47,428 bases of DNA from a virus (taxonomy: Duplodnaviria > Heunggongvirae > Uroviricota > Caudoviricetes): the IMG/VR virus record IMGVR_UViG_2574180238_000003; one strand, 5' to 3'. Position numbers and translations under genes: made by a program. Every line of letters begins with the position of its first letter. Positions within the stretch are counted from its first letter, which is position 1. The notes under the pieces are model-generated. The model saw only the letters and a program-made list of their open reading frames with translations. It ran no database searches and was not told the DNA's origin. Positions 19,292-27,712 of this stretch are shown one piece after another.

Positions 19292-21256
19292 ATGGCATTT
19301 AAACACTACGATGTGGTCAGGGCGGCATCGCCGTCAGACCTTGCTGAACGACTGACACAAAAACTGAAGGAGGGCTGGCAGCCATTTGGCAGTCCGGTGG
19401 CCATCACGCCTTATACCCTGATGCAGGCCATTGCGGCGGAAGGTGATGTCACCACACCAGTGGCGGTGACCGGTAATGAGGGTAAGGCGGTGGCTGTCAG
19501 TGCCACCAGCGACCCGGAGTATTACTTTGTTGTGGTTCTGGCAGGGCAGTCAAATGGCATGTCGTATGGTGAAGGTCTTCCGCTGCCGGAGACATATGAC
19601 CGTCCGGACCCGCGCATTAAGCAGCTGGCGCGCCGCAGTACGGTGACACCGGGCGGTGCAGCATGCAAATATAACGACATCATTCCGGCGGACCATTGTC
19701 TGCATGATGTGCAGGACATGAGCCGCCTTAACCATCCGAAAGCGGACCTGTCAAAGGGGCAGTACGGTACCGTGGGGCAGGGGCTGCATATCGCCAAAAA
19801 ACTGCTGCCGTTTATACCGGCGAATGCGGGTATTCTGCTGGTTCCGTGCTGTCGTGGGGGTTCAGCGTTCACCACCGGAGCTGATGGCACATACAGTGAC
19901 GCTGGCGGTGCCTCGGAGAATTCAGCGCGCTGGGGTGTGGACAAGCCGCTGTATAAGGACCTTATCGGTCGAACAAAAGCAGCACTGAAGAAGAACCCGA
20001 AAAATGTGCTGTTTGCCGTGGTGTGGATGCAGGGGGAATTTGATTTTGACGGCACGCCCGGAAATCACGCAGCACAGTTTGGTGCGCTGGTTGATAAATT
20101 CCGTGCAGACCTGGCGGATATGGCAGGCCAGTGCGTCAGTGGCTCTGCTGGCGGTGTTCCCTGGATATGCGGGGACACGACGTATTTCTGGAAGCAGAAG
20201 AACGAATCCACGTACCAGACGGTGTACGGCAGCTATAAAAACAAAACGGAAAAGAATATCCATTTCGTACCGTTCATGACGGATGAGAACGGGGTGAATG
20301 TGCCGACGAACAAACCGGAAGAAGACCCGGACATTCCGGGTATCGGGTATTACGGTTCGAAATGGCGTGACAGCTCAGCCCCCTGGACGTCACAGGACAG
20401 GGCGAGCCATTTCAGCACCTGGGCACGCCGGGGGATTATTTCCGACCGTCTGGCAACGGCGATTCTGGTGCACGCCGGGAGAACCGCTGAATTCATTACC
20501 GGAAAACAGCCTGATATGGTGAAGCCCACCGTACCTTCCGGTGAAGGTCCGGAGAGAGAGGCGGAAGCCCCGGTCAGTAACCGAACCCTGATGAGTCTGC
20601 TGGCATCCGGCGAAGACCTGGCATCACAGGGCTGGCGCTATTATCACAAACCGGCGGGCGGGGACAGTGTTAACAAAAACATTGCTGAAGCGGTGGTCAG
20701 TGATGCGGGGGCTACGGGAGGTAAGGCTCTGCAACTGAACAAACCGGAAAACCACATCTGGTTTCTGGAGCATGATGCAGCCGGACAGGGTGCGGAGTTA
20801 CTGAAGAAGGGCGGACGTGTGAGCGTACGGTTTAAGTTGCCGGGTTCACTGGTGCCGAATCAGTTTGCCCTGGGCATTTACTGGCAGTTGTCGTCCCTGC
20901 CGGAGGGGGTGACGCTGTCAGGAGAAGGTAACGATATGCTGATGTCTTTCTTCCTGCAGACGGATACGACGAACCTGAACGCGATGCATCACAGGAAGCC
21001 GAATGCGAAGCTGGATACATTCGGGGTCTTTGATAACGGATGGCACACGCTGGCTTTTGAGTTTGCCGGAAACAACAGCATTCAGGTGACACCAGTACTG
21101 GATGAGAAACGGGGAGCGGCGTTCACACTGGTGAAGTCACCGGCATCGGGGGCGGCGGACAAACTGCAACTGACCGATATATCAAAATCGGCGACGTATA
21201 CGCTGCTGATTGACAGCATTGCGGTGGAAGTGAACAGCACAGACACTGCGGCATGA
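19292..21256 (+). CDS. NanS-p-type sialate O-acetylesterase (SGNH/SASA hydrolase)
   Basis: 654-aa ORF; GQSN catalytic motif (VVVLAGQSNGMSYGEG); location between Q/tRNAs and the lysis cassette as in Stx-type lambdoid phages. Confidence 0.75.
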   Translation: MAFKHYDVVRAASPSDLAERLTQKLKEGWQPFGSPVAITPYTLMQAIAAEGDVTTPVAVTGNEGKAVAVSATSDPEYYFVVVLAGQSNGMSYGEGLPLPETYDRPDPRIKQLARRSTVTPGGAACKYNDIIPADHCLHDVQDMSRLNHPKADLSKGQYGTVGQGLHIAKKLLPFIPANAGILLVPCCRGGSAFTTGADGTYSDAGGASENSARWGVDKPLYKDLIGRTKAALKKNPKNVLFAVVWMQGEFDFDGTPGNHAAQFGALVDKFRADLADMAGQCVSGSAGGVPWICGDTTYFWKQKNESTYQTVYGSYKNKTEKNIHFVPFMTDENGVNVPTNKPEEDPDIPGIGYYGSKWRDSSAPWTSQDRASHFSTWARRGIISDRLATAILVHAGRTAEFITGKQPDMVKPTVPSGEGPEREAEAPVSNRTLMSLLASGEDLASQGWRYYHKPAGGDSVNKNIAEAVVSDAGATGGKALQLNKPENHIWFLEHDAAGQGAELLKKGGRVSVRFKLPGSLVPNQFALGIYWQLSSLPEGVTLSGEGNDMLMSFFLQTDTTNLNAMHHRKPNAKLDTFGVFDNGWHTLAFEFAGNNSIQVTPVLDEKRGAAFTLVKSPASGAADKLQLTDISKSATYTLLIDSIAVEVNSTDTAA

Positions 21257-21845: not shown

Positions 21846-22379
21846 ATGAGCAGGAAACTCCGCTATGGTTTATCGGCTGCCGTTCTGGCGCTGATTGCCG
21901 CAGGTGCTTCTGCGCCTGAAATCCTCGACCAGTTTCTGGATGAAAAGGAAGGCAACCACACCACGGCATACCGTGATGGTGCGGGTATCTGGACCATCTG
22001 CCGAGGTGCCATCATGGTGGATGGCAAGCCTGTTATTCCTGGCATGAAGCTGTCGAAGGGGAAATGCGACCGGGTTAACGCCATTGAGCGTGATAAGGCG
22101 CTGGCATGGGTGGCGAAAAACATCAAAGTGCCACTGACTGAACCCCAGAAAGCGGGTATTGCGTCATTCTGTCCTTACAACATTGGCCCGGGTAAGTGTT
22201 TCCCGTCGACGTTTTATAAGCGGCTTAATGCCGGTGATCGTAAAGGTGCCTGTGAGTCGATTCGCTGGTGGATTAAGGACGGTGGGCGTGATTGCCGCAC
22301 ACGTTCAAATAACTGCTACGGACAGGTTATTCGTCGTGACCAGGAAAGCGCATTAGCCTGTTGGGGGATAGATCAGTGA
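21846..22379 (+). CDS. SAR endolysin (T4-lysozyme family, GH24)
   Basis: 177-aa ORF; N-terminal signal-anchor-release segment ([15 protein letters not shown]) followed by an E..D..T lysozyme core ([20 protein letters not shown]). Confidence 0.85.
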
Positions 22380-22813
22380 GAAGAGTAGCCGCGATTATCT
22401 CCGCTCTGGTTATTTGCATCATCGTCTGCCTGTCATGGGCTGTTAATCATTACCGTGATAACGCCATTACCTATAAAGAACAGCGCGATAAAGCCAGGTA
22501 CATCATCGCTGACATGCAGAAGCGTCAACGTGATGTAGCAGAACTTGACGCCAGATACACAAAGGAGCTTGCTGATGCTAACGCGACTATCGAAAGTCTC
22601 CGTGCTGATGTTTCTGCTGGGCGTAAGCGCCTGCAAGTCGCCGCCACCTGTGCAAAGTCAACGACCGGAGCCAGCAGCATGGGCGATGGAGAAAGCCCAG
22701 GACTTACAGCAGATGCTGAACTCAATTATTACCGTCTCCGAAGTGGAATCGACAAGATAACCGCGCAGGTCAACTACCTGCAGGAGTACATCAGGACGCA
22801 GTGCTTAAAATAA
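22376..22813 (+). CDS. Rz (i-spanin)
   Basis: [34 protein letters not shown]... matches recalled lambda Rz; GTG start overlaps the endolysin stop. Confidence 0.85.
22575..22760 (+). CDS. Rz1 (o-spanin lipoprotein), embedded in Rz in the +1 frame
   Basis: Lipobox LGVSAC followed by a proline-rich segment ([13 protein letters not shown]), fully nested in Rz. Confidence 0.75.
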
Positions 22814-22850
22814 TTTTAATTTCACTGAAATTTAATACGTGACTTTCAGG

Positions 22851-22880
22851 AAAATGCCTCGCAGATGCGGGGCATTTTTG
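22851..22880 (+). terminator. Intrinsic terminator after lysis cassette
   Basis: atgcctcgc-agatg-cggggcat hairpin followed by ttttt. Confidence 0.6.
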
Positions 22881-23229
22881 TACAGGTATTTCACCGCGCA
22901 TCGCAGCGCACTCAACCACGTCGAACCAAACCCTTTGGAATGAGCCTTTGAGTAGTCAGTTAGTGCTGGTGAGCCTTGACGGGCTGATCTCCTATGCAGC
23001 AAAGGTTCATCTCAAAGTAAGGCGAACGCTATGACAAACCAAGATTCTATAGACCTATCTGATCTTCGTGGAATGGTCAGTTTTCCAGACAAAAGGTAAT
23101 CACCATAGTCGTATGGCTATGAATCTTGTTGCTGCAGATAAGCATTTTGTGATTGAAGTGGTCAAATCTCTCAAATGCAGTAAAATGCAGTGCGCTATAA
23201 TTCAATAACGGAGGGAGTAAGGAGAAGTC

Positions 23230-23850
23230 ATGAAAGATCAAGATGTTAGGTTCGCGGTGCATCATAAGCTTTTGAAAGAATCGCATTTAGATCCAGACTG
23301 CCTTGTGGTCGATGAATTTTCCATATCCCTTGGCGCCAGTAGAGCAGACATTGCTGTAATAAATGGTGTTATACACGGGTACGAGCTCAAAAGTGAATAT
23401 GACTCTTTGGAGCGTTTGCCTCTTCAAATCAAGCATTATTCTTCTGTAATGGACAAGGTTACTCTTGTCGTAGCTGAGAAACATCTTGAGGGAGCATTAA
23501 AGTTAATCCCAGGTTGGTGGGGCGTTAAAACGGTTTCTGTTGGGTCAAAAGGCGCCATTCTTATAAAGCACATGCGTGGAGAAAAGCTTAATCGAAACCA
23601 TGACACATTGATGCTCGCTCAATTGCTTTGGAAAGATGAATGTATCGACGTACTTGAACGATGGGGCTATTCCAAAGGAATCAAAAGCAAGCCCCGATTT
23701 GAGTTATGGAATATTATTGCGGAAAATATTCCAATAGCGAATCTCAGGCTTGAAGTCAGAACAGCCTTAAAGAAACGCGTAGGCTGGAAAGTTAAGGCTT
23801 GGCAGGCTGAGTCTGCGCCAACCAATAAAGCTGTCTCACGACTAACGTAA
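23230..23850 (+). CDS. Hypothetical protein with PD-(D/E)xK-like nuclease motif
   Basis: 206-aa ORF with a strong Shine-Dalgarno (GGAGGGAGTAAGGAGAAG before the ATG); putative active-site elements RADIAVINGVIHGYELKSE (D...ExK); AT-rich; convergent with and overlapping the next gene. Confidence 0.6.
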   Translation: MKDQDVRFAVHHKLLKESHLDPDCLVVDEFSISLGASRADIAVINGVIHGYELKSEYDSLERLPLQIKHYSSVMDKVTLVVAEKHLEGALKLIPGWWGVKTVSVGSKGAILIKHMRGEKLNRNHDTLMLAQLLWKDECIDVLERWGYSKGIKSKPRFELWNIIAENIPIANLRLEVRTALKKRVGWKVKAWQAESAPTNKAVSRLT

Positions 23851-24859
23851 TATGGTGCGTATGTGCAACTTTACGCCATTCTTTAGAGCCGCCAGATTTG
23901 TTAGCGCCTAATGATCTTTGGTAAATGTAATCATCCCCCCAACTAAATTTGGAGCCAAAGACTTGATACTCTGGCGAACTAACAAGGGTAGTACATAAGT
24001 TTTTAGTTTGGCCCCATCCATTTCCTTTAACTGCGGTACCTTTTACAAAGATCCATGAGGTATCGTTCGAATATCTCACTGAGACATACTGAGACATGAA
24101 GCGTGGGTCTACGCTCGTAATGGTAGAGCTAGCGGTGGGATAATCACTAAAACTTGGCGTTCTTCCATTGCTAAAATTCTGTACTACGTACATCCAAAGA
24201 TCGTATTCATGGCGCGGAATATGATGAACTTGATGTTGCGGTATCCCTGCCTGTGATGCCGGGTATGCGGTTGAAGATAAAATCAAGTTTCTCCACGGAG
24301 CTTGGCCTGATAATGTGTTGACCATGCTTAATGCTTGTTGTTTTAAACTATCAGTTGCGTTTTGAATATCTCCAAAATCAATGATTACATCAATTAAACT
24401 AGGATGAATATTTAAGTGGTTAACCAGACTTGTGAATTGGTGCCATGTCTGGGGGGTGATAGATATAGCGAGCCCATTGATTAAGTTGCGTTGAACAGCA
24501 TGTATATAGTTTGTTGAATATGTGGGAGAAACAACAGGGATAATTTCCTTACCATTTACTCTAGCATCTTGGATACACATATCTAGAGGATGATGGCGGC
24601 TCGAACCATGTTTATCTAAATATTTAACATCCAGCAAAACAGGACGATTGGCTTTCCAGGATGCCGCAAGGTTAATACCGAAGTCAGATAAGTAAGAACT
24701 CAAACTCTTCTTGTAGCATTCGTTTTCATAATCCCAGTCTATGTCTGGAATGGTAATGATCGGAGTAAAACCAGAGAGCGTAGTTTGATCTAAAAGCATC
24801 AGAGATTCATATTCAGCAGGCTTCCATTTCAGCTGTGGATAATATTGATGTTGACTCAT
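23792..24859 (-). CDS. Hypothetical protein (355 aa), partner of the PD-(D/E)xK-like gene
   Basis: Minus-strand ORF with an AAGGAG Shine-Dalgarno upstream; its 3' end overlaps the plus-strand gene by 59 bp; no recognisable motifs; AT-rich promoter region at 24860-25060. Confidence 0.6.
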   Translation of the reverse strand: MSQHQYYPQLKWKPAEYESLMLLDQTTLSGFTPIITIPDIDWDYENECYKKSLSSYLSDFGINLAASWKANRPVLLDVKYLDKHGSSRHHPLDMCIQDARVNGKEIIPVVSPTYSTNYIHAVQRNLINGLAISITPQTWHQFTSLVNHLNIHPSLIDVIIDFGDIQNATDSLKQQALSMVNTLSGQAPWRNLILSSTAYPASQAGIPQHQVHHIPRHEYDLWMYVVQNFSNGRTPSFSDYPTASSTITSVDPRFMSQYVSVRYSNDTSWIFVKGTAVKGNGWGQTKNLCTTLVSSPEYQVFGSKFSWGDDYIYQRSLGANKSGGSKEWRKVAHTHHITLVVRQLYWLAQTQPAKP

Positions 24860-25059
24860 TAAAACTCCTTAAAATCTTTACTTATTCTAAGTATAGTGTT
24901 ATAGCGTAACGCCAATTGTTTTTATACAATTGAAAACATTGGGAAAAGTTGAGCTATATCTAAATTTACAAAATTGGATGTTATAGAAATCGAGGTTTCA
25001 ACTAGGCATGGAACTGCAAAATTTTTAATGCCTGCACGCGAAAGTCGTTGGCGGGTCCT

Positions 25060-25263
25060 TTCCGGTGATCCAGACCGTTACGGGGCGGCGACCTCGCGGG
25101 GTTTCACTATTTATGAAAATTTTTCGGGAAAAAGCAGATCCGTTCTTCTTCTTTTTAACTGATTGATTATCAATAGAATATTAAAAATATAAAAGGATCT
25201 AACAAAGGCTGTTTTTGTCCGAAAATGCCATTTTCAGATCCTTTCTGGTTTCCAGAGGAGTGT
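25060..25263 (+). other. cos site (cosN/cosB), lambda-like
   Basis: ggggcggcgacctcgcggggtttcactatttatgaaaatttttcgg matches the recalled lambda left end (GGGCGGCGACCTCGCGGGTTTTCGCTATTTATGAAAATTTTCCGG); cohesive-end sequence at 25083-25094; immediately upstream of Nu1. Confidence 0.85.
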
Positions 25264-25812
25264 ATGAACGTCAATAAGAAAAAATTGGCCGATATTTTTG
25301 GCGTTGATGTCAGGACCATCACCGCCTGGCAGAGTCAGGGGTTACCACTAGTTTCTGGTGGAGGGAAAGGGACTGAATCAGTTTTTGATACAACTGCTGC
25401 CATTCAGTGGTATGCGCAGCGCGAAGCTGATATTGAAAACGAAAAACTCCGTAAAGAGGTCGAGGATTTGAGGGCTGCCAGCGAATCAGACCTTCAGCCC
25501 GGCACCATTGATTACGAACGTTACCGACTGACGAAGGCACAGGCAGATGCACAGGAACTGAAAAATGCCCGCGACAGTGGGCAGGTCATTGATACAGGGT
25601 TTTGCCTTTTTGCTCTGGGAAGACTGGCACAGGAGATCTCTGCCATTCTTGACTCCATTCCATTGTCCATGCAGAGACAGTTTCCGGCACTGACGCCCGC
25701 TATGCTTGATTTCCTGAAAACCGATATAGCAAAGGCGGCAAACCGATGCGCATCAACGGCAGAGAAGTTACCGGAGATGCTGGATGAATACCTCAGAGAA
25801 GCAGCTAAATAA
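25264..25812 (+). CDS. nu1: Terminase small subunit (Nu1)
   Basis: [29 protein letters not shown]...GGGKG matches recalled lambda Nu1 (MEVNKKQLADIFGASIRTIQNWQEQGMPV...). Confidence 0.9.
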
Positions 25813-27712
25813 CTTTGCTGTTGTTTGTGGAGTGGCACTTCGTGGGCTTTTACGCCCACTGCCTGTAACCACCGTTGAATGGGCCGATCAAAATTATTAT
25901 TTGCCCCCGGAGTCCTCTTATCTTGCCGGGCGGTGGAAGACGTTGCCCTTTCAGGTGGCAATAATGAACTGCATGGGTAATGACCGGATCCGCACAATTA
26001 ATCTTATAAAATCAGCTCGAGTCGGTTACACCAAAATGCTGATGGGCGTTATTGGTTACTTTATTGAGCATAAAAACCGTAACAGTCTTCTGTTTCAGCC
26101 TACGGATTCTGTCGCTGAAGATTTTATGAAGTCTCATGTGGAGTCAACATTACGGGATGTTCCCTGTCTGAAAATTCTTTCCCCCTGGCTGGGGCGTAAG
26201 CACCGGGATAACACACTGACATTAAAAAGATTCACGTCCCGTGTGGGGTTCTGGTGCCTGGGTGGTGCTGCCGCCAAAAACTACCGTGAAAAATCAGTGG
26301 ATGTGGTCTGCTATGACGAACTTTCCTCATTCGAGCCGGATGTCGAAAAAGAGGGCTCGCCAACCCTGCTGGGGGATAAGCGTATTGAGGGCTCGGTATG
26401 GCCAAAATCCATTCGCGGCTCGACGCCAAAAATAAAAGGCTCCTGCCAGATCGAAAAAGCGGCCAACGAGTCGGCACATTTCATGCGTTTTTATGTGCCC
26501 TGCCCGCACTGTGGGGAGGAGCAGTATCTGAAATTTGGCGATGAGTCCACGCCTTTTGGGCTTAAATGGGAGAAGGACAGTCCCGAAAGTGTTTTCTACC
26601 TCTGTGAACATCATGGCTGCGTGATCCATCAGTCTGAACTGGACCAGAGCAACGGGCGGTGGATCTGTGAAAACACGGGGATGTGGACCCGTGACGGTCT
26701 GACGTTTTTCAGCGCTGCGGGTAATGAAATTCCGCCGCCGCGCTCCATCACATTCCATATCTGGACGGCGTACAGTCCGTTCACCACCTGGGTACAGATA
26801 GTCTATTACTGGCTGGATGCACTGAAAGATCCCAACGGCCTGAAAACTTTTGTGAACACCACGCTGGGCGAGACCTGGGAAGAGGCCGTGGGCGAAAAAC
26901 TCGATCACCAGGTACTGATGGATAAGGTTGTGCGTTACACGGCGGCGGTGCCTGTCCGGGTGGTTTATCTGACGGCGGGCATTGACTCGCAGCGAAACCG
27001 TTTTGAGATGTATGTCTGGGGATGGGCTCCGGGAGAGGAAGCTTTTCTGGTGGATAAAATCATCATTATGGGGCGTCCCGATGAGGAAGAGACGCTGTTA
27101 CGTGTGGATGCGGCGATCAACAAAAAATACTGCCATGCAGATGGAACCGAAATGACCATTTCCCGTGTCTGCTGGGACACCGGGGGGATCGATGGTGAAA
27201 TTGTTTATCAGAGATCAAAAAAACACGGTGTTTTCCGGGTGCTGCCGGTAAAAGGCGCGTCTGTCTATGGCAAGCCGGTGATCACCATGCCAAAAACCCG
27301 CAATCAGCGGGGCGTGTATCTGTGTGAAGTGGGGACGGACACCGCAAAAGAAATTCTCTATGCCCGTATGAAAGCCGATCCCACGCCTGTGGATGAAGCC
27401 ACGTCGTATGCCATCCGTTTTCCTGATGATCCGGAGATTTTTTCGCAGACAGAGGCGCAGCAACTGGTCGCGGAAGAGCTTGTGGAGAAGTGGGAAAAAG
27501 GAAAGATGCGTCTGCTGTGGGATAACAAAAAGCGGCGTAACGAAGCGCTGGACTGCCTGGTGTATGCCTACGCGGCATTACGTGTGTCCGTGCAACGCTG
27601 GCAGCTTGATCTGGCTGTACTGGCAAAATCCCGGGAAGAAGAGACGACCCGGCCAACCCTGAAAGAACTGGCAGCGAAGCTGTCCGGAGGAGTGAATGGT
27701 TACAGTCGCTGA
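25784..27712 (+). CDS. A: Terminase large subunit (gpA)
   Basis: 642-aa ORF collinear with recalled lambda A ([35 protein letters not shown] Walker-like region, [17 protein letters not shown]). Confidence 0.9.

Follow-up and report, generated by a model that had tools for sequence, protein, structure and literature searches.

The stretch of DNA analyzed here (IMG/VR record IMGVR_UViG_2574180238_000003, 47,428 nucleotides (nt); referred to below, at its full length, as the window) is a complete lambdoid (lambda-like) Escherichia coli prophage, in which an insert of approximately 1.8 kb and of low GC content is positioned between the lysis gene Rz and the cohesive-end site cosN. The insert carries two genes, named here A and B, which face each other and overlap at their 3' ends, and which encode a protein of the sce7726 family and a Beta protein, respectively, i.e., relatives of the cII and beta products of P4. 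Within the region ~23000-25400 the GC content is 0.36-0.44, compared with 0.49-0.57 in the lysis and terminase genes; this profile, the end of Rz and the position of cosN bear out the AT-rich insert between Rz and cos that was reported in an earlier note made from the sequence alone (hereafter, the original prediction). The main features of the locus are the following:

Rz, ending at 22813; left neighbor of the insert region
22814..23034, plus strand; rha remnant of 221 nt directly after Rz, left boundary, outside the system
~23124..24983; mobile cassette block delimited with blastn, comprising both genes and ~90-120 bp upstream of each
23230..23850, plus strand; gene A, 206 aa, sce7726-family, P4 cII-like
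23792..23850, opposite strands; 3'-3' overlap of 59 bp, dual-coding
23792..24859, minus strand; gene B, 355 aa, Beta protein, PF14350
25083..25094, plus strand; cosN, the 12-nt cohesive-end sequence GGGCGGCGACCT, right boundary, 224 nt from the gene B start

In the identical E. coli copies RefSeq calls coding sequences (CDSs) identical to the two open reading frames (ORFs), in agreement with the original description, which also assigned a strong Shine-Dalgarno sequence to each; in both genes this sequence is of the AGGAG type and lies 5-6 nt before ATG. The blastn comparisons showed that the copies found in Klebsiella, Edwardsiella, Pectobacterium, and several viral contigs (loci L005, L006, L019, and L107-L122) share with the window only the block 23124-24983, at ~74-76% nucleotide identity, and have unrelated flanks, which supports the earlier view of a self-contained, horizontally acquired cassette. 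The sequence 22814-23034 shows 86% identity to the 3' part of P22 rha (34 P22-like phage records) and marks an older gene arrangement at the Rz-cos slot.

Within E. coli, the cassette was found at 99% identity or more in 127 of 5426 complete genomes (2.3%), including that of the well-studied strain 55989, in which the stretch identical to 23124-24983 is NC_011748.1 1430620-1432479, and a region of 2.27 kb is 99-100% identical in 126 of the 5426; in the inspected copies the placement is identical, i.e., lysis genes, cassette, small terminase. A third cassette gene was considered (a 46-aa ORF at 23068-23208 and the ORFs in 22814-23229) and rejected, as these candidates lie outside the conserved block, have no RefSeq annotation and are partly rha remnant. 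The ORF list contains none between the gene B start (24859) and cos, and no Rfam family matched in 22000-26000, where known RNA elements were sought. In strain CUVET17-972, an IS2 is inserted between beta and cos. The prophage has a second accessory gene, encoding a 654-aa SASA-family carbohydrate esterase (19292-21256), directly upstream of the holin gene and between the Q region and the lysis genes.

The two proteins and their prototypes

The gene A product matches the NCBIfam model NF033832 (sce7726) with 184.9 bits and an E-value of 1.3e-54 (residues 1-183 on profile positions 1-182 of 184), i.e., over the full length and above the curated cut-off of 70 bits. It also matches the PADLOC 'cll' model of P4 cII (2e-31) and phrog_984, and the identical protein WP_000654793.1 is named 'sce7726 family protein' in RefSeq. 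Its AlphaFold model (predicted local distance difference test score, pLDDT, of 89) displays the alpha-beta-beta-beta-alpha-beta core of restriction endonucleases, and residues E29, D40, E52, and K54 are 100% conserved in 79 homologs from many phyla, so that both features by which PD-(D/E)xK enzymes are recognized, the core fold and the E...D...(D/E)xK residues, were found. The original prediction had pointed to a D...ExK motif, RADIAVINGVIHGYELKSE, compatible with a nuclease of the restriction-endonuclease fold; D40, E52, and K54 of this motif, together with E29, proved invariant, and the predicted fold agrees. On the grounds of this modeled fold and of the motif, gene A is assigned to the PD-(D/E)xK nucleases, and its activity would be metal-dependent. 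The nuclease domain (residues 1-~117) is followed by a helical SAP-like domain (~120-187), which is probably DNA-binding, and by a read-through tail (189-206), encoded within the overlap, which is disordered and lacks conservation.

Gene B matches Pfam PF14350 with 190.4 bits and an E-value of 7.8e-56 (residues 6-342 on profile positions 1-342 of 342), the gathering threshold being 27 bits and the score of P4 beta itself 191.3 bits. Among the PADLOC models, two of PD-Lambda-2_C gave 4.3e-32 and 2.2e-25, covering residues ~132-349 only, and 'beta' gave 2.7e-10 over the full length; all 58 diverse partner Beta proteins described below match the PD-Lambda-2_C / beta models as well. The RefSeq name is 'beta family protein'. 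No match was found to the sce7725 family (NF033831), named for the neighbor of sce7726 in Sorangium, and only one of the 58 partner Beta proteins matches it, weakly (1.5e-4). AlphaFold models gene B (pLDDT 92) as a TIM barrel capped by C-terminal helices; a sequence-profile search found no solved relative, and a profile search based on the diverse Beta alignment yielded, for the most part, the same close relatives. The conserved residues E16, P108, D161, R216, D239, Y263, D309, W328, and H336 suggest a catalytic or ligand-binding pocket.

In this respect the original prediction has to be corrected, as it found no recognizable motif in gene B and held neither protein to be placeable: both are full-length members of named families, both carry RefSeq names, and the founders of the families are beta and cII of P4. 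The profile searches that it proposed as a check thus removed the part of the claim concerning unplaceable proteins, and the families to which they led supply components of anti-phage systems. The GenBank record of P4 lists gop (133 aa), beta (355 aa), and the opposite-strand cII, which RefSeq names 'sce7726 family protein'. The gop-beta-cII locus (DefenseFinder 'Rst_gop_beta_cll', PADLOC 'gop_beta_cll') protects against lambda and P1, and gop and beta are treated as a toxin-antitoxin (TA) pair (Rousset et al. 2022, PMC9122126); according to a preprint, cell death via gop-beta-cII is set off by orf184, an accessory gene of a phage. In the second system, PD-lambda-2, a HigB-like protein and an Xre-peptidase, which is toxic, are joined by component C, described as 'P4 antitoxin-like', which is needed for defense and dispensable for toxin neutralization (Vassallo et al. 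2022, PMC9519451).

Conserved pairing and phase-locked overlap

The occurrence of the pair was assessed in a species-level scan (one genome per species) with sce7726 alignment, which gave 218 confirmed loci, 80 of them kept for analysis. The sce7726 gene is thus present in at least 218 of 100,044 species-representative genomes, a lower bound obtained with one peptide pattern, and its loci were found in Proteobacteria, Firmicutes, Bacteroidota, Myxococcota, Melainabacteria, Chloroflexi, Elusimicrobiota, Omnitrophota, Spirochaetes, Acidobacteria, Gemmatimonadetes, and several lineages of the Candidate Phyla Radiation (CPR). It should be stressed that gop-beta-cII was reported as confined to Proteobacteria (one preprint), but the core pair goes beyond this phylum.

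A Beta homolog is the convergent neighbor in 77 of the 80 sce7726 loci, from more than 10 phyla, and the co-occurrence analysis suggested by the original prediction therefore revealed a near-exceptionless pairing. Two of the three loci without Beta end at a contig edge, and the third (L008 6001-7810, Xenorhabdus koppenhoeferi) is the only complete sce7726 locus lacking it. There, sce7726 is followed by co-directional ORFs which, judged by eye from the translations, are Ser/Thr kinase-fragment-like and PP2C phosphatase-like.

The 3' ends of the two genes overlap in 75 of the 77 pairs (median 47 nt, range 4-134), and in 72 of the 77 the length of the overlap is 2 mod 3, i.e., in a single phase. 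The convergent arrangement with a 59-bp overlap, noticed from the start, is thus exact for the window, and the overlap as such is a conserved trait of the family; the length of 59 bp is lineage-specific and is composed of an 11-nt overlap, as in Klebsiella-type copies, and a 16-codon read-through tail of gene A, predicted to be disordered. Moreover, exactly 34 nt separate the codons of the invariant R183 of A and the near-invariant H336 of B in 60 of 71 loci, a register seen in E. coli Rac-type prophages, a Gordonia phage, Firmicutes, and CPR bacteria. In the clade of the window this spacing is 73 nt (13 extra codons, in phase), and P4 is the outlier, with 345 nt. Conserved C-terminal residues of A and B are hence encoded on opposite strands of the same DNA. 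Since phase survives both in-frame indels and shifts of the stop codon, the tail-to-tail overlap is ancestral to the pair and has been kept since the common ancestor. The two proteins also co-diverge (Mantel r = 0.78, with none of 999 permutations as high), the median identity to the window protein being 27% for Beta and 42% for A, and Beta diverging ~1.2x faster. No intrinsic terminator was found between the genes or just inside them, so that transcription of either gene must run on into its neighbor in the antisense direction.

In a minority of loci, extra genes are located upstream of Beta and co-directional with it. These are the Xre-M78 peptidase gene in 11-13 loci (a strong match to PD-Lambda-2_B, best E 6e-159), HigB in seven, DUF6932 in five, and gop in P4, so the gop-less form is the majority (~64 of the 77 loci sampled). 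Two loci (L044 7647-9129 and L055 7605-9502) carry HigB or DUF6932, Xre-M78, Beta, and then a convergent overlapping sce7726. Plasmids were additionally searched with the Xre-M78 protein, a query without bias toward sce7726. The Agrobacterium plasmid pAt2788b (L129 2526-5880) carries Xre-M78, Beta, and a convergent sce7726 with a 47-nt overlap, and Rhizobium phaseoli pRphaN931b (L131 2854-5297) carries Xre-M78 and Beta; no sce7726 could be detected in this plasmid locus, and no HigB is annotated there. PD-lambda-2-type loci thus often have a convergent sce7726 as a fourth member. The dependency is asymmetric, as the nuclease is almost never found without Beta, whereas Beta can pair with other partners. 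It is also worth mentioning a plasmid of Acinetobacter pittii, pNDM-AP_882 (L130 2770-5271), in which an ImmA/IrrE peptidase gene is accompanied by an N-terminal Beta fragment, truncated by the IS30 preceding blaNDM-1; it is a defense-type locus broken by a resistance-gene insertion.

The neighboring genes encode recombinases, integrases, Type III restriction-modification (R-M) systems, Gabija, DRT, and PD-Lambda-1, i.e., the neighborhoods are mobile-element and defense-island contexts, and the pair occurs sporadically in plasmids, prophages, and chromosomes. This distribution bears on the alternative in which the pair is a repair or recombination accessory of a mobile element, or serves counter-defense during the phage's own lytic growth. 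Such a role would suit the closest solved structure to gene A, the MmcB-like protein 3dnx, the names given elsewhere to its homologs ('DNA repair protein MmcB-like' in one database source, 'exonuclease' by Gordonia phage annotators) and the co-direction of gene A with the late operon of the prophage. We consider it improbable, as homologous pairs belong to two systems with measured anti-phage phenotypes, the cassette resides in variable hotspots beside other defense genes, and its spread is sporadic both within E. coli (the 2.3% given above) and across many phyla.

A proposed defense module and its rivals

The best explanation of these data, to which we assign a probability of roughly 45%, is that the cassette is a minimal two-gene core of the Beta/cII anti-phage family, carried as a moron at the cos-adjacent site, with Beta as the sensor or activator, the nuclease as the effector, and antisense tuning between them. 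The components of this reading differ in strength. By analogy, a defense role is fairly likely, as the pair, consisting of relatives of anti-phage components and overlapping tail-to-tail in many phyla, probably protects its host. That the sce7726 nuclease is the effector seems a little less certain, though still the favored assignment; the role of Beta as an activator rather than an antitoxin is put forward tentatively, and functional antisense coupling via the overlap with more reserve again.

In the lysogen, each gene would be transcribed from a promoter of its own that moves together with the cassette, as the following conserved upstream elements suggest:

23159..23201, plus strand; promoter-like region of gene A, a nearly invariant stretch in the alignment of six cassette copies (~75% overall identity)
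23159-23186, plus strand; TGGTCA-16-TAAAAT, alternative promoter match for gene A
23176-23195, plus strand; ATGCAGTAAAATGC(A/T)GTGCGC, near-invariant 20-nt element abutting the gene A TATAAT
23196-23201, plus strand; TATAAT, invariant, upstream of gene A
24865-24870, minus strand; AAGGAG, Shine-Dalgarno sequence of gene B, 5-6 nt before ATG
24921-24926, minus strand; TATAAA, conserved, 5' of gene B
24950-24963, minus strand; TTAGAT(A/T)TAGCTCA, conserved, 5' of gene B

It is from their conservation that a promoter role is presumed for the elements in 24865..24963, and the 20-nt element upstream of gene A may be an operator. In the window this element holds a direct repeat of ATGCAGT. At 24920-24940 on the minus strand, the sequence CAATTGTATAAAAACAATTG consists of two palindromic CAATTG hexamers flanking the gene B TATAAA; the first CAATTG site reads AGAGG or AGAAT in other cassette copies, and the hexamer pair is thus specific to the E. 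coli lineage.

According to the proposed mechanism, the sce7726/cII-like protein would be an Mg-dependent PD-(D/E)xK DNA nuclease with a SAP-like DNA-binding tail and would act as the effector. Beta, the faster-evolving TIM-barrel protein, would be the sensor or activator that the nuclease requires, either sensing an infection cue or making or binding a ligand. A protein or a state of the infecting phage would trigger the pair, for which orf184 and gop-beta-cII provide a precedent, and DNA cleavage would stop the infection. The mRNAs of the terminator-less convergent overlap would be mutually antisense, and expression of the two genes may thereby be coupled or limited. Because gene B is antisense to the late operon, with which gene A is co-directional, Q-dependent late transcription should raise A and interfere with, or silence, Beta. 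The antiparallel overlap, seen from Actinobacteria phages to CPR bacteria, is an unusually old one and offers a clean system in which a possible mutual antisense regulation of an immune module can be studied.

The activator role of Beta is suggested by its relations with its partners, since the nuclease almost never occurs without Beta and Beta occurs without the nuclease and with other effectors. It is suggested further by the tolerance of beta knock-outs with the nuclease intact, and by component C of PD-lambda-2, which is needed for defense and not for toxin neutralization. The knock-outs are natural: among ~90 of the 127 E. coli cassette records inspected for gene integrity, all from complete genomes, six independent beta disruptions were found, in each of which sce7726 is a single uninterrupted annotated CDS. 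They are caused by insertion sequences (IS) or a frameshift:

strain 2013C-3181 (L125); IS3
strain 100416; IS5
strain 1532WA (L127); IS1
strain NMBU-W12E19; IS1A
strain RM10410 (L128); IS66
strain PRO_A-1534-6M-A; frameshift

In 2013C-3181 and RM10410, the sce7726 protein is WP_000654793.1, as in the cassette 100% identical to the window. Among the ~90 records inspected, none showed a disrupted sce7726.

These losses bear directly on a TA addiction system, in which the nuclease would be a constitutively active toxin and Beta its antitoxin, with the prophage stabilized, or infection aborted, upon loss of Beta. The nuclease gene is nearly always accompanied by Beta, as toxins are by antitoxins; P4 beta is described as the antidote to Gop (PMC9122126, citing Ghisotti 1990), and both gop-beta-cII and PD-lambda-2 are classed as TA-like in published papers (PMC9122126, PMC9519451, and the preprint). 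Six viable E. coli strains with disrupted beta and intact sce7726 argue, suggestively and not decisively, against Beta as the indispensable antitoxin of a constitutively toxic nuclease, and fit a nuclease that is inert without Beta. In addition, Beta is larger than the putative toxin and has the enzyme-like fold of a TIM barrel, with a pocket of conserved polar residues, it is encoded convergently and not in a TA operon, and its PD-lambda-2 counterpart is unneeded for neutralizing the toxin of that system. We therefore regard a TA system as an unlikely explanation, though it stands above the other rivals. The original prediction of a candidate defense or abortive-infection module is upheld as far as homology to components of gop-beta-cII and PD-lambda-2 is concerned; with the toxic parts missing, defense by the two-gene form is presumed, and the beta knock-outs argue against a simple TA or abortive-infection reading in which Beta restrains a constitutively toxic nuclease.

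The same IS elements, which struck beta repeatedly, might be taken as a sign that the prophage carries the cassette as a passenger, neutral or in decay, that serves no function at present. This is very improbable, given that, in the large majority of the 127 E. coli genomes, the two ORFs are intact with identities of at least 99%, that the catalytic residues are invariant across phyla, and that the promoter-like elements are conserved.

The combination of a nuclease with an enzyme-like partner also calls to mind an R-M-like system, in which Beta would modify self DNA or the nucleotide pool and the nuclease would cut unmodified incoming DNA; in type II R-M systems, too, the genes are often arranged convergently. 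However, the score of Beta against DpdA is no better than that of dozens of unrelated TIM barrels, and profile searches found no sequence-level link to a transglycosylase or methyltransferase. Loss of a modification gene next to an intact nuclease should kill, yet the beta knock-outs persist, and the late transcript, as the orientation of the genes implies, would silence the 'modification' gene while the nuclease is expressed. We hold such a system to be as improbable as the repair accessory.

Several observations weigh against the defense module with Beta as activator that we favor. The proven toxic parts of the related systems (Gop and the Xre-peptidase of PD-lambda-2) are absent from the window, and an anti-phage phenotype is established for P4-type three-gene loci and for no gop-less, HigB/Xre-less two-gene member. 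In the published PD-lambda-2 clone only ~396 bp follow gene C, less than a whole sce7726 would need, and the nuclease is therefore not needed for the phenotype of that system. The fold of gene B matches no specific enzyme family, and its chemistry and 'sensor' role are guesses. The six-to-zero split between beta and sce7726 disruptions has a probability of ~0.06 if disruptions fall by gene length and is not decisive, and the IS insertions may be tolerated since the nuclease is simply unexpressed. Finally, the phase-locked overlap is possibly a frozen accident of dual coding and not a regulatory device.

A bolder form of the favored explanation, which we consider speculative and rather doubtful, is that Beta and sce7726 form an ancient autonomous two-gene immune module, in which a TIM-barrel enzyme or sensor activates the nuclease and the overlap serves as a control device. 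If this is true, Gop, HigB/Xre-M78, and DUF6932 would be lineage-specific add-on effectors on a Beta hub, natural PD-lambda-2 loci would be four-gene systems, and current finder rules would miss the module.

Comparison with known systems

The closest relative is P4 gop-beta-cII. In tblastn comparisons, P4 cII shows 27% identity to gene A (E 9e-17) and P4 beta 22% identity to gene B (E 8e-6), both Beta proteins being 355 aa long. As in the window, beta and cII of P4 are convergent; both loci belong to a temperate element, where they lie at a variable site next to cos and share their orientation toward it, and the order reading away from cos is beta and then the convergent cII-like gene. The host elements differ, being a lambdoid prophage here and a P4-like satellite there, and P4 cII has an extra C-terminal extension of ~70 aa in comparison with gene A. 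The window genes overlap, whereas 27 nt, with a terminator in them, lie between beta and cII in P4. Mutation of this terminator by Ghisotti et al. in 1990 reportedly impaired beta expression.

The toxic component of P4, the 133-aa Gop with its hydrophobic N-terminus, is without a counterpart here: P4 Gop searched with tblastn against the whole window gave no better match than one with an E of 0.08, which falls elsewhere, at a site unrelated to the locus. In the same way, no homolog of HigB, Xre-M78, or DUF6932 was found in the window (best E > 1 for HigB and Xre-M78, the queries being taken from related loci). The component shared with PD-lambda-2 is Beta, to which its C protein belongs, like gene B; as published, that system has no nuclease, and the window has no HigB-like and no Xre-peptidase gene. 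Since gop, HigB, the Xre-peptidase, and DUF6932 are absent, the window locus is neither system as defined, and holds only their (partly) shared parts. A defense-finder rule that requires gop (all three genes) or HigB plus the Xre-peptidase should consequently miss it, and with it the gop-less form, which is the majority.

Both protein families, the P4 prototypes, and the validated homologous systems are already known. In the literature searched there was no report of Beta and sce7726 as a widespread core with gop or HigB/Xre as add-ons, of this core as strictly convergent and phase-locked across phyla, or of PD-lambda-2-type loci commonly including a nuclease.

More distant comparisons concern the genomic slot and the fold. 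Lambda bor and other morons between Rz and cos occupy the same slot as the cassette, and bor, like gene B, is antisense to the late operon; bor has its own promoter. The proteins are unrelated, bor being a single lipoprotein gene and the cassette a two-gene convergent unit. Gene A has the E...D...ExK constellation in common with MmcB-like proteins, NucS, Can2, and type II restriction enzymes, all of the PD-(D/E)xK superfamily, and does not belong at the sequence level to any of these families; it has no CARF, SAVED, or other sensor domain, and possesses instead its own SAP-like C-terminal helical domain and an obligate TIM-barrel partner. The cassette thus links two validated, unexplained systems, gop-beta-cII and PD-lambda-2, through a common two-gene core, and the proposed effector (the nuclease) and hub (Beta) would make both of them more tractable.

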